Source: Escherichia coli
GTDB lineage: Bacteria > Pseudomonadota > Gammaproteobacteria > Enterobacterales > Enterobacteriaceae
Direction: 5' to 3' (one strand)
Assembly (NCBI RefSeq): GCF_003334385.1
Contig: NZ_QOWN01000011.1
DNA length: 64,000 bases
Of the stretch, positions 19,379-29,881 are shown in pieces (the stretch's first letter is position 1; each line of letters begins with the position of its first letter). Both the position numbers and the translations under genes were made by a program. Under the pieces are notes generated by a model. It saw only the letters and a program-made list of their open reading frames with translations, had not been told where the DNA came from and searched no databases.

Positions 19379-22925
<3,547 letters not shown>

Positions 22926-22954
22926 GCGTTGTGTCCTGACCTGATTCTGGATAT

Positions 22955-23413
22955 TTATTCGATGGGTAAAGAAGTGGTGTATTTAATCTGTTCCATCGCG
23001 AAGCTGGAAGTGACGTCCGACAGCCCCGGCACGCTGTTTACCAGACGCTTATAAAACTCGTCGTAGCGTTTCATGTCGGCAACCTGGACGCGCATCAGAT
23101 AATCGTATTCACCAGCCATGCGCCAGAACCCCAGCACTTCTGGCATTTCGGTAACCACCGTGACAAAGCGGCAATACCATTCGCTGCTGTGATGTTGCGT
23201 TTTTATCAGCACAAAAGCGGTCAGGCCGAGGCCTATTTTTTCCGGATCCAGCAGGGCGACTTTGCCGATAAGGATACCGTCGTCCTCCAGCCGTTTCAGG
23301 CGCTTCCAGCAAGGGGTGGTTGTCAGATTAACGGCTTCAGCCAGTGCCTGCAAAGAGAGGGTGCAATCCTGCTGCAGTAAGGCCAGCAGCTTACGGTCAA
23401 TTTTATCTAACAT
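22955..23413 (-). CDS. decR: Lrp/AsnC-family transcriptional regulator DecR (YbaO)
   Basis: 152 aa from ATG at 23411-23413 ([46 protein letters not shown]...); the 228-aa track ORF has a 76-codon spurious extension. Confidence 0.9.
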
Positions 23414-23565
23414 AGCCCTTCCACAGAGAATTTTTTTCTCTTTTAATTTTATTTTAAAGGTGAAATCACGACAATTTATTCTGTGCGGTTTAAACACCAC
23501 GGCACAAAATGACAAATTCAACGCAAAAAAAACCGGGCAATTGCCCGGTGCTGGAAGGGATCTCG

Positions 23566-24384
23566 TTATTCGGGGGAATAAGGTAGATGTGGATAGTCCA
23601 GCCAGTGCGTCAAATAGTGAGAGACAGCCTGATTTCGGCAATGTCCAATCACCGGTAAATGCGGGAGCTCCGCGCGCAGTTGCGGCATCGCATTGCCCAT
23701 AATAAATCCGCTACCGACGCTGACTAACATTTCGCGATCGTTCATCGCATCACCAAAGGCCATGCAATCGCGCAACGATAAACCTAAATGTTGGGTCAGC
23801 ACCGTCAATGCAGCGCCTTTATTGCAGCCCACCGGCAGCACTTCGAGGCAATCCGTGGCGGAAAAACACAAATGTGCACGCTCGCCTAATGCTTCGTATA
23901 GCTGGATCTGCAAGCGTGTAAGATCGTCGTGATCGCCACAGAAGCAGATCTTGGTGACGCTGCCGAGTGGCATTTTTTTGACATCGATTATCTGATAACG
24001 AAAACCGCTATAGACAAATGCCTGCAACAACGCAGGGATCTCTTTCCCGGTAAACCAACCGTCGTCATTGAAGATATGCATGCTGGCTCGGGTATCCCAT
24101 TGCTGATACAGCACCAGCTCCGCGACATCCGCAGGTAAATCATCACGATGTAAAAGTTCACCTTCCAGAGAATGCACGCGCGTTCCGTTGCCGGTAATCA
24201 AATACGCATCCAGCGATAGCGCCCCGAGAATATGCTGCATCTCCAGCGCATGACGCCCCGTGGCAAAAGTGAGGGTAATGTCGCGTTCACGCAGTCGCGC
24301 CAAAGTAGAGAGGGTTTTCTCACCTAAATGATGGTCAGGCATCAATAAAGTGCCATCCATATCAAATGCTGCCAGACGAGCCAT
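23566..24384 (-). CDS. cof: HAD-family HMP-PP phosphatase Cof
   Basis: 272 aa from ATG at 24382-24384 ([17 protein letters not shown] motif I). Confidence 0.92.
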
Positions 24385-24483
24385 TTCTTTCTCCACTCTG
24401 TGACACGGTTAATGGTGATTGAGTATCACCTGATATATACGGAAGTAATAGTGAATAGTTAAATAATATTGTTCCGGGTTTAT

Positions 24484-26184
24484 ATGCGATTGCTCAACCG
24501 TCTTAACCAGTATCAACGTCTGTGGCAACCTTCCGCCGGAAAGCCGCAAACCGTCACCGTCAGCGAACTGGCCGAACGCTGTTTTTGCAGCGAACGCCAT
24601 GTTCGTACGCTGTTGCGTCAGGCACAGGAGGCGGGATGGCTGGAGTGGCAGGCGCAGTCAGGACGCGGAAAGCGCGGACAATTACGCTTTCTGGTCACGC
24701 CGGAATCGCTACGCAATGCGATGATGGAACAGGCACTGGAAACCGGAAAGCAGCAAGATGTGCTGGAGCTGGCGCAACTGGCCCCAGGTGAGCTGCGCAC
24801 TCTGTTACAGCCGTTTATGGGCGGACAATGGCAAAACGATACACCCACGTTGCGTATTCCCTACTATCGCCCGCTCGAACCGCTACAACCAGGCTTTTTG
24901 CCCGGCCGTGCCGAGCAGCATCTCGCCGGGCAGATATTTTCCGGCCTGACCCGCTTCGATAATAATACTCAGCGCCCGATTGGCGATTTAGCGCATCACT
25001 GGGAAACCTCTACTGACGGGTTACGCTGGGACTTTTATCTTCGTTCAACCCTACACTGGCATAACGGCGATGCAGTAAAAGCCTCACACTTACACCAGCG
25101 ATTATTGATGCTGTTACAACTGCCAGCACTGGATCAATTATTTATTAGCGTGAAGCGTATTGAAGTCACCCATCCGCAGTGTCTGACCTTCTTTTTACAT
25201 CGCCCTGATTACTGGCTTGCGCACCGGCTGGCGAGCTATTGCAGCCATCTGGCGCATCCGCAATTCCCACTGATCGGCACGGGTCCTTTTCGCTTAACAC
25301 AATTCACAGCAGAGCTGGTGCGCCTGGAAAGCCATGATTATTACCATTTACGTCATCCGCTGCTTAAAGCGGTTGAGTACTGGATAACTCCGCCGCTTTT
25401 CGAAAAAGATTTGGGAACCAGTTGTCGGCATCCCGTGCAAATCACCATCGGCAAACCGGAGGAGCTGCAACGGGTCAGCCAGGTCAGTAGCGGCATCAGT
25501 TTAGGTTTTTGCTATTTGACGTTGCGCAAAAGTCCCCGACTCTCCCTCTGGCAGGCGCGAAAAGTGATCTCCATTATTCATCAATCCGGTTTATTACAAA
25601 CGTTAGAAGTCGGAGAAAACCTGATCACCGCCAGTCATGCATTACTGCCAGGCTGGACTATTCCGCATTGGCAGGTACCGGATGAAGTCAAACTACCGAA
25701 AACCTTGACGCTGGTTTATCACCTACCGATAGAACTTCATACCATGGCAGAACGCCTACAGGCGACACTGGCAGCGGAAGGCTGTGAACTCACAATTATT
25801 TTTCATAACGCAAAAAACTGGGACGACACGACCCTACAGGCACACGCAGACCTCATGATGGGCGACAGATTAATTGGCGAAGCACCGGAATATACTCTGG
25901 AGCAATGGCTGCGCTGCGATCCGCTGTGGCCACATGTTTTCGACGCTCCAGCATACGCACATCTACAATCGACACTGGATGCCGTGCAAATAATGCCTGA
26001 TGAAGAAAACCGATTTAATGCCCTGAAAGCGGTTTTTAGCCAGTTAATGACAGATGCGACGCTGACGCCGCTGTTCAACTATCACTATCGCATTAGTGCC
26101 CCTCCCGGCGTGAACGGTGTGCGACTGACACCGCGCGGCTGGTTTGAATTTACCGAAGCCTGGCTTCCCGCGCCATCGCAATGA
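24484..26184 (+). CDS. ybaE: SgrR-like protein YbaE (N-terminal HTH fused to a periplasmic-type solute-binding domain)
   Basis: 566 aa from ATG at 24484 (MRLLNRLNQYQRLWQPSAGKPQTVTVSELAERCFCSERHVRTLLRQAQEAGWLEW...); matches E. coli YbaE. Confidence 0.9.
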   Translation: MRLLNRLNQYQRLWQPSAGKPQTVTVSELAERCFCSERHVRTLLRQAQEAGWLEWQAQSGRGKRGQLRFLVTPESLRNAMMEQALETGKQQDVLELAQLAPGELRTLLQPFMGGQWQNDTPTLRIPYYRPLEPLQPGFLPGRAEQHLAGQIFSGLTRFDNNTQRPIGDLAHHWETSTDGLRWDFYLRSTLHWHNGDAVKASHLHQRLLMLLQLPALDQLFISVKRIEVTHPQCLTFFLHRPDYWLAHRLASYCSHLAHPQFPLIGTGPFRLTQFTAELVRLESHDYYHLRHPLLKAVEYWITPPLFEKDLGTSCRHPVQITIGKPEELQRVSQVSSGISLGFCYLTLRKSPRLSLWQARKVISIIHQSGLLQTLEVGENLITASHALLPGWTIPHWQVPDEVKLPKTLTLVYHLPIELHTMAERLQATLAAEGCELTIIFHNAKNWDDTTLQAHADLMMGDRLIGEAPEYTLEQWLRCDPLWPHVFDAPAYAHLQSTLDAVQIMPDEENRFNALKAVFSQLMTDATLTPLFNYHYRISAPPGVNGVRLTPRGWFEFTEAWLPAPSQ

Positions 26185-26248
26185 ATAGCTGGTCCGGGTT
26201 AATCGCAGGCGTTACCATAACGCTTTTATTGTTCAAGCAGGATTATCT

Positions 26249-26944
26249 ATGAAACGTGCTGTCGTTGTGTTCAGTGGAGGTCAGGATTCCACCACCTGTC
26301 TGGTGCAGGCATTACAACAATATGATGAAGTCCATTGCGTGACGTTCGATTACGGTCAGCGGCATCGCGCAGAAATCGACGTGGCACGCGAACTGGCGCT
26401 GAAACTGGGGGCACGCGCGCATAAGGTGCTGGATGTCACCCTGCTCAACGAGCTGGCGGTCAGTAGCCTGACGCGTGACAGCATTCCGGTGCCTGATTAT
26501 GAACCTGAAGCCGATGGTATCCCGAATACGTTTGTCCCAGGGCGTAATATTTTGTTCCTGACGCTGGCGGCAATATATGCGTATCAGGTAAAAGCAGAAG
26601 CCGTAATTACTGGCGTCTGCGAAACGGATTTCTCCGGCTACCCGGATTGCCGCGATGAGTTTGTGAAAGCACTAAACCATGCCGTCAGTTTGGGCATGGC
26701 GAAAGATATTCGTTTTGAAACGCCGCTGATGTGGATTGATAAAGCGGAAACCTGGGCGCTGGCAGATTATTACGGCAAACTGGATTTAGTCCGTAACGAA
26801 ACGTTGACCTGCTATAACGGCTTTAAAGGCGACGGTTGCGGTCATTGTGCGGCATGTAATTTACGCGCCAACGGTTTGAATCATTATCTGGCCGATAAAC
26901 CGACGGTGATGGCAGCGATGAAGCAGAAAACCGGGTTGAGGTAA
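26249..26944 (+). CDS. queC: 7-cyano-7-deazaguanine synthase (queuosine biosynthesis)
   Basis: 231-aa [21 protein letters not shown] (PP-loop SGGxDS) ...; matches E. coli QueC. Confidence 0.95.
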
Positions 26945-26953
26945 TTATTCCGG

Positions 26954-26985
26954 GTGTCGCCGGATGCGGCTTGAGCATCCGGCAC
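26954..26985. repeat. REP-like palindromic unit
   Basis: gtgtcgccggatgcggcttgagcatccggcac between convergent queC and fadM. Confidence 0.7.
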
Positions 26986-26995
26986 CACAAAACGT

Positions 26996-27394
26996 TTACT
27001 TAACCATCTGCTCCAGCTTTTCGCGCAATTCCCCTTCCAGAGCTAATGCTTTCTGCGTTTTAAGATCAATACAAACAAACGTAATAAGCGCATCCGCTAC
27101 CACCTGCCCTTCCGGCTCCAGTGTAATGACCTGGCTTAAGATGCCGCTTTTACCGTTTAATTGCTGCAACTGACTGGTAATAGTTAACAGGTCACTTAAT
27201 ACCGCTGGGCGACGATAGTTAATATTGATATTGACCACGACGAAGGCGATGTTATGGGCCGTCATCCACTGAAAACTGTCGCTATTTTCCAACCCATCCC
27301 AGCGGGCTTCTTCGAGAAATTCAAGGTAGCGGGCGTTGTTGACGTGCTGGTAAACGTCGAGATGATATCCACGAACTTTGATTTGTGTTTGCAT
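26996..27394 (-). CDS. fadM: long-chain acyl-CoA thioesterase III FadM (YbaW)
   Basis: 132-aa ORF MQTQIKVRGYHLDVYQHVNNARYLEFLEEARW...; hot-dog fold thioesterase; matches E. coli FadM. Confidence 0.93.
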   Translation of the reverse strand: MQTQIKVRGYHLDVYQHVNNARYLEFLEEARWDGLENSDSFQWMTAHNIAFVVVNININYRRPAVLSDLLTITSQLQQLNGKSGILSQVITLEPEGQVVADALITFVCIDLKTQKALALEGELREKLEQMVK

Positions 27395-27435
27395 AGCGCA
27401 ATAACCTTACGTTGTTGTTATAAGTACAGAGGTCA

Positions 27436-29881
<2,446 letters not shown>

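Follow-up and report, generated by a model that had tools for sequence, protein, structure and literature searches.

The 64,000 nucleotides of Escherichia coli DNA analysed here (contig NZ_QOWN01000011.1 of assembly GCF_003334385.1; hereafter the window) contain the gene ybaE on the plus strand (24484..26184), which extends in the list of open reading frames from an ATG at 24484 to a TGA at 26184 and codes for 566 amino acids plus stop. Its DNA is 100% identical to the RefSeq ybaE WP_001238234.1, for which the product name is "SgrR family transcriptional regulator". The window is thus E. coli chromosome, and the gene is one that has already been named. With ybaE and its flanks (24200-26300 of the window) as a 2.1-kilobase query, 5425 of the 5426 complete E. 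coli genomes were found to have the region; coverage of the query was 80% or higher in 5375 of them. The peptide TVSELAERCFCSERHVRTLLRQAQEAGWLEW, which was quoted in a preliminary description of this DNA, corresponds to YbaE residues 24-54. A longer version of the gene with an in-frame TTG start at 24469 was rejected, since the reading frame 5′ of the ATG is not conserved between species.

Upstream of ybaE the genes mdlB, mdlA, decR and cof are located in this order on the minus strand; ybaE and queC follow on the plus strand. The gene next to ybaE, cof (23566..24384, minus strand), encodes a Cof-type HAD-IIB hydrolase that matches the NCBIfam model for HMP-PP phosphatase with 554 bits, the next-best family being the YigL model with 222 bits. 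We propose cof as the target of YbaE, and the 99 base pairs (bp) between the two start codons (24385..24483) as their shared control region. The preliminary description was right in reporting ybaE as divergent from cof. It had also placed ybaE beside decR, which is in fact the next gene beyond cof.

The pairing of the two genes is conserved. A scan with one genome per species yielded 80 Enterobacteriaceae loci encoding proteins with 59-95% identity to YbaE; a more distant orthologue is found in Edwardsiella tarda (46% identity). Wherever the upstream flank was long enough (79 loci, from approximately 78 Enterobacteriaceae species and Edwardsiella tarda), cof and ybaE are divergent and queC comes after ybaE. 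YbaE homologues with 31-39% identity are found in other contexts (oxidoreductase genes, a phosphotransferase system permease, fimbrial clusters, a TetR gene), thus the pairing with cof defines the YbaE clade. Of the 79 measurable loci, 60 have a cof-ybaE spacer of 93-106 bp and the other 19 one of 110-374 bp. An alignment of the 93-106-bp set, comprising 60 distinct sequences from approximately 60 species, revealed that 39% of the spacer columns are at least 95% identical. The corresponding value is 2% for the spacer between ybaE and queC in these genomes, and 5-8% for the third positions of the codons in ybaE, cof and queC. The cof-ybaE spacer is strongly constrained.

Two blocks in this spacer are nearly invariant. 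Block A (ATATACGGAAGTAATAGTGAAT, 24435..24456) contains a CGGAA core at 24440-24444 and occurs once in the window, with 0.01 occurrences expected. We propose it as the distal half-site for YbaE, lying over the −35 region of the predicted cof promoter. Block B (TTGTTCCGGGTTT, 24469..24481) contains a TTCCG core at 24472-24476 and ends 2-8 nucleotides (nt) 5′ of the ybaE ATG; it is non-coding, because its reading frame relative to the ATG varies, and is the proposed proximal half-site, where YbaE would repress its own gene. The two cores are inverted and 27 bp apart. Further conserved parts are AGTAT (24422-24426) and CTG (24430-24432). The invariant AGTAT belongs to the predicted −10 element of cof, GATACT (24422..24427, minus strand), which is located 57-62 nt from the ybaE ATG and carries on the cof strand the key −10 residues A2 and T6. 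Transcription of cof would start at approximately 24414, so that its leader would be 30 nt long and include a GGAG ribosome-binding site; for ybaE the predicted start is within approximately 24440-24450. When we searched the window for additional copies of the blocks, and all complete E. coli genomes with BLAST, the only matches were the site itself or at chance level, short half-sites being undetectable that way. E. coli genomes carry the composite operator region as a single copy.

Close to the start of cof, at 24399-24414, a conserved TGTGA (24399-24403) is followed six bases later by TTAAC/TAATG. This element resembles a medium-quality CRP site, and if transcription of ybaE starts near 24445 the candidate site would be centred approximately 40 bp upstream. 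The spacer on the other side of the gene, between ybaE and queC (26185-26248), is mostly variable. Two short blocks are kept there across genera, GCTGGTC after the ybaE stop codon and GCGTTACCAT, and a terminator-like hairpin is located at 26207-26225. The two blocks may be the −35 and −10 elements of a queC promoter, in which case queC would be independent of ybaE.

The regulator SgrR of E. coli (b0069), which activates SgrS, the small RNA of sugar-phosphate stress, is also encoded head to head with its divergent target across a short spacer. We rebuilt the footprint upstream of sgrR from five genera. The sequence GGAGTTCCCCTTTT directly 5′ of the sgrR ATG is invariant in these five genera and lies in the same place as block B with the same GTTCC core; thus both genes have an invariant GTTCC-containing block immediately before their own ATG. 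Measured from the sgrR ATG, the distance is 68 nt to the annotated start of sgrS and 55-60 nt to the sgrS −10 element. The region bound by SgrR is reportedly located at roughly −70 to −35 of sgrS. Likewise, the spacing of the half-sites is parallel: GGAA-N27-TTCC is located at −43/−12 from the ybaE ATG, and the GGAA/TTCC pair is found at −42/−10 for E. coli sgrR and at −43/−10 for Aeromonas sgrR. Paralogues in other genera have related sequences. A ybaE paralogue in Entomohabitans is preceded by a perfect 12-nt inverted repeat of the TAACAGGAACA type (TAAACAGGAACA/TGTTCCTGTTTA), and ATTTCCGGTTTTAT, which is nearly block B, is found upstream of a paralogue gene in Enterobacter. Altogether, four of nine distinct family members have GGAA-N26-29-TTCC upstream; the mean in shuffled sequences was 0.16, and none of 5000 shuffles reached four.

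Pfam searches of the protein identified SgrR_N (PF12793) at residues 7-119 (5.3e-39) and SBP_bac_5 at residues 165-303 (1.3e-16). An AlphaFold model built from a 95-sequence family alignment reached a predicted local distance difference test (pLDDT) score of 91.4 and a predicted template modelling (pTM) score of 0.88. In this model residues 1-70 (24484..24693, plus strand) have the order helix-strand-helix-helix-strand-strand of a winged helix-turn-helix DNA-binding domain, with the recognition helix at approximately residues 37-49. Residues 73-111 (24700..24816, plus strand), which fall within the SgrR_N match, form according to the secondary structure of the model a three-helix linker between the DNA-binding and the ligand-binding domain. 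Beyond the linker, residues ~113-566 (24820..26181, plus strand) are modelled as a two-lobed alpha/beta domain with the family-5 (cluster C) solute-binding-protein fold, the presumed ligand sensor. The domain search and the structure prediction, both suggested in the preliminary description as checks, agree with it in finding a DNA-binding fold at the N-terminus. Its assignment of the remainder to the solute-binding proteins is correct for the fold but not for the length, which is approximately 450 residues rather than ~480. No solved structure of an SgrR family protein was found in sequence searches of the PDB or among the fold-search matches listed.

Neither a signal peptide nor a lipobox is present in the YbaE sequence. 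The N-terminus (MRLLNRLNQYQRLWQPSAGKPQ...) is polar, with an 11-residue hydropathy maximum of 0.57 for windows starting in the first 40 residues, and a hydropathy scan of the whole protein revealed no hydrophobic N-terminal stretch or transmembrane-like segment. Therefore YbaE is, according to its sequence, a cytoplasmic protein. No importer permease or ATPase genes adjoin ybaE, either at the locus described here or in the approximately 80 species compared, where the neighbours are cof, decR, mdlAB (exporter type), queC and fadM. Mapping of the ligand-anchoring residues of the dipeptide-binding protein DppA on YbaE showed that the position of R383 is lost in a deletion common to the family and that a glycine takes the place of D436. 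Since these residues are not kept, the ligand of YbaE is probably not an ordinary peptide.

YbaE aligns end to end with E. coli SgrR (BLASTP, residues 9-565 with 9-550, 27% identity, E 9e-55), in line with the SgrR-like architecture noted earlier for this gene. The similarity is higher in the helix-turn-helix and wing, where 25 of 45 residues (56%) are identical and the recognition helix reads SERHVRTLL in YbaE and SRRHMRTLL in SgrR. Both proteins combine an SgrR_N winged helix with a family-5 binding fold. On the NCBIfam SgrR equivalog model NF010149, YbaE scores 231.9 bits, with the cut-off at 476. Because of this score, and since its divergent neighbour is the protein-coding gene cof and not sgrS/sgrT, YbaE is by sequence a paralogue and not an orthologue of SgrR. 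The true sgrR loci examined do carry SgrT, and in contrast to sgrR, ybaE is not followed by a setA-like gene. SgrR is also the more conserved of the two in the same genera (79-86% compared to 70-80%). Judged from the sequence, YbaE belongs to the broad SgrR family, having SgrR_N, a family-5 domain without export signal and full-length homology to SgrR. The conserved candidate operator upstream of its own gene would point indirectly to sequence-specific DNA binding and control of transcription. In the classification by Horler and Vanderpool (2009; PMC2760817) YbaE is "Clade 2" of the SgrR homologues, with unknown function.

We propose that YbaE is a ligand-responsive activator of cof and a repressor of its own gene, binding to both half-sites in the cof-ybaE spacer, and we assign this reading a probability of roughly 0.55. 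The domain architecture, the cytoplasmic location, the conserved gene order and the constrained spacer with its sgrR-like geometry are shown by the sequence comparisons, whereas we infer that YbaE binds to the half-sites, in which direction it regulates, where the promoters lie and what the ligand might be. YbaE would be a cytoplasmic one-component transcription factor, the N-terminal winged helix of which would bind DNA, while the C-terminal family-5 fold would sense a small intracellular metabolite. It would bind to the two inverted CGGAA/TTCCG half-sites 27 bp apart in the 99-bp spacer. In analogy to SgrR, YbaE bound to the proximal half-site, right before the start codon, would repress its own expression, and liganded YbaE at the distal half-site over the −35 region of a weak cof promoter would activate the divergent cof. 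Activation of sgrS by SgrR has been described (PMC4021124), and autoregulation at sgrR is cited in a paper on the Vibrio cholerae protein DsvR (bioRxiv 10.64898/2026.04.01.715812). Since Cof is a phosphatase and has its closest paralogue in YigL, which belongs to the SgrR/SgrS regulon, the module would respond locally to the accumulation of a phosphorylated metabolite by dephosphorylating it. YigL is a phosphatase induced through SgrR/SgrS (PMC4021124), thus a Cof-type phosphatase is found in each setting: YigL in the SgrR response and Cof adjoining YbaE. Candidates for the ligand would be hydroxymethylpyrimidine phosphate, a toxic analogue of it or another Cof substrate. For SgrR, binding of glutamate has been reported (PMC6775132).

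Several points weigh against this proposal. In a consensus scan neither strand of the cof-ybaE spacer showed a canonical sigma-70 promoter, therefore both promoter placements are a reading of conserved hexamers only. The invariant blocks could equally serve other regulators. The GGAA/TTCC pattern is missing in five of the nine family members, it was chosen post hoc after inspection of the data, and its core is only 4-5 bp long. In Citrobacter, Salmonella, Kosakonia and Enterobacter the distal arm upstream of sgrR is GGGAT and not GGAA. The ligand is proposed solely from the identity of the neighbouring gene cof, and the regulatory link between YbaE and cof is proposed from sequence comparison.

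The serious rival explanation is that YbaE regulates distant genes or queC and that cof is not its main target. The pairing would then be inherited gene order, and the blocks would be promoter elements or sites of other regulators such as CRP. Distant targets are known for related regulators: alaC for SgrR (PMC4021124), and zapC together with many other genes for DsvR (bioRxiv 10.64898/2026.04.01.715812). The conserved TGTGA at 24399-24403 would fit with the reported induction of ybaE on carbon limitation (PMC6390033). In addition, gene order is conserved throughout these species all the way from mdlA to ppiD, so that the adjacency of cof and ybaE is by itself weak evidence. However, sgrR, with its invariant block, and the Enterobacter paralogue have a sequence similar to the block before the ybaE ATG, which is hard to explain by unrelated regulators, and both the spacer length and the blocks persist to Edwardsiella, although the neighbours mdlAB have changed there. 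A composite operator region that is single-copy in E. coli genomes likewise does not favour distant targets, and queC has its own conserved promoter-like blocks as well as a terminator-like hairpin in the spacer that separates it from ybaE. Taken together, we regard regulation of distant genes or queC as possible but rather unlikely.

The blocks might also be an RNA leader element, riboswitch or attenuator in the 5′ untranslated region of ybaE or cof. Riboswitches for metabolites of the thiamine pathway exist in other bacteria. Block B is located where the ybaE leader and ribosome-binding site are expected, and CGGAA and UUCCG could pair in a transcript. No Rfam match was found in the spacer, even at E values up to 1, and RNAalifold predicted only the 5-bp CGGAA/TTCCG pairing (−3.7 kcal/mol) without any compensatory change; the single change in this pairing, found in Edwardsiella, breaks a pair. 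An RNA element in the spacer is therefore not supported, and a 99-bp spacer common to two genes leaves little room for an aptamer. We consider this explanation improbable.

Even less probable is that YbaE is a decaying or functionless SgrR paralogue. The protein has no established phenotype and retains 60-80% identity where DecR and QueC keep 83-96%, and occasional E. coli strains have an insertion sequence (IS) in the gene or an N-terminally truncated form. In the E. coli sequence NZ_OW968288.1 an IS4-like ISVsa5 element is inserted within ybaE, and a 444-amino-acid form without the DNA-binding domain is called in a protein cluster of 305 sequences (P0023); loss of ybaE function is thus evidently tolerated in some strains. 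Against decay, full-length open reading frames of 565-570 amino acids are kept in approximately 80 species, and the ybaE query is covered to at least 80% in the 5375 of 5426 E. coli genomes mentioned above. Furthermore, approximately 190 residues are invariant in six genera, the DNA-binding motif included, and the first and second codon positions of ybaE are far more conserved (0.89 and 0.91) than the third (0.63). This conservation excludes the decaying-paralogue reading.

The older annotation of YbaE as a periplasmic substrate-binding protein of an ABC transporter, which agrees with the family-5 fold of its C-terminal 450 residues, with database entries that name homologues "peptide ABC transporter substrate-binding protein" and with a study from 2025 (PMC12147183) that calls YbaE periplasmic or outer-membrane associated, is effectively refuted by the missing signal peptide and lipobox, the winged helix at the N-terminus and the lack of adjacent importer genes (mdlAB, two genes away, encode fused exporter-type ABC proteins), as well as by the family-wide deletion at the position of DppA R383, and has a negligible probability. 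The periplasmic label in that study does not fit the YbaE sequence. In the same study, ten knockouts, among them the Keio ybaE deletion, resisted the lacritin peptide N-104. The family-5 (cluster C) proteins NikA, DppA, OppA, CntA, GsiB and MppA share only approximately 15% identity with YbaE, which differs from these periplasmic proteins in having no signal peptide, being fused to a DNA-binding domain, having no transporter genes alongside and not keeping the dipeptide-anchoring residues of DppA.

Some features of the neighbourhood differ between genera. Outside Escherichia a gene for a 348-amino-acid cysteine-synthase-like protein, a pyridoxal phosphate enzyme, is located between decR and cof (for example at L025:3993-5039 in Enterobacter, with an equivalent gap between decR and cof in most of the loci L010-L086). 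It is divergent from decR, convergent with cof and has no counterpart in Escherichia, where decR is without this partner. Presumably it resembles the cysteine desulfhydrase gene controlled by a DecR/CutR homologue in Salmonella. Thus decR has its own divergent partner there, and cof is a single-gene unit facing ybaE. Because of this separate pairing decR was rejected as a likely partner of ybaE. In Entomohabitans, YbaE and Cof have 63% and 68% identity, compared to 83-88% for MdlA, DecR, QueC and FadM. Together with YbaV, YbaE and Cof are the fastest-evolving proteins of this well-conserved neighbourhood (21153-29881 of the window compared with loci L007-L086), and YbaE and Cof change at similar rates across genera. 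The sole member of one protein cluster (P0002) is an 818-amino-acid fusion of QueC, SgrR_N and SBP_bac_5, which, as a singleton, probably arose from an error in assembly or gene calling.

Within the SgrR family, DsvR (Vca0578), the zapC activator of V. cholerae, is like YbaE a member without an sgrS partner. An 11-bp DsvR box has likewise been reported directly 5′ of the start codon of the regulator itself (bioRxiv 10.64898/2026.04.01.715812). DsvR differs from YbaE in belonging to another clade and organism, and its regulon comprises cell division and sugar uptake. The general design is more widespread: in the LacI/GalR and LysR families a helix-turn-helix is also combined with a fold of the binding-protein type, which closes around its small molecule. 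These families use the smaller type I and II folds, whereas the SgrR family has the large family-5 fold and a long helical linker. The E. coli sgrR gene is located directly upstream of the thiamine importer genes thiBPQ (thiQ-thiP-thiB-sroA-sgrR in K-12, L002:230-5300), and ybaE faces the HMP-PP phosphatase gene cof. That both SgrR family genes of E. coli have thiamine-related neighbours could be a coincidence or could reflect a shared link to thiamine/pyrimidine metabolism. Two SgrR family genes in tandem (558 and 554 amino acids, 34% and 31% identical to YbaE) were found on the metagenome contig Ga0376656_0000391 (L093:3001-6795 / L095:871-4665), with a fimbrial usher/adhesin cluster on one side and a GerE-type regulator and fimbrial genes on the other, a context unrelated to sugars or phosphatases.

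A wider reading, which we put forward only tentatively, is that YbaE and Cof are a second, protein-only counterpart of the SgrR-SgrS-YigL circuit of sugar-phosphate stress. A phosphorylated metabolite (hydroxymethylpyrimidine phosphate, a toxic analogue, pyridoxal or sugar phosphates) might be sensed and Cof induced from a divergent promoter through a family-shared operator, consisting of inverted GGAA/TTCC half-sites approximately three helical turns apart, with the proximal one over the translation start of the regulator.

The placement of YbaE in the SgrR family was already known from RefSeq and from Horler and Vanderpool (2009). A full-text search of the literature naming ybaE, part of which was judged by title or abstract, found no definition of a ligand or regulon, in line with the preliminary description. 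Apart from the induction on carbon limitation and the lacritin resistance of the deletion mutant, ybaE occurs in this literature as incidental matches in mutation lists and with a 3.7-fold change between biofilm regimes; the papers judged by title or abstract deal with unrelated topics. What we add here are cof as a candidate target, two named half-sites, predicted start sites and an operator layout that is possibly family-wide. ybaE is one of the remaining regulator genes of E. coli K-12 without known ligand or target, and cof encodes a phosphatase with activities in vitro but no established physiological role. If YbaE indeed controls cof, two orphan genes would gain a function together, and the SgrR family would gain a testable common operator rule.

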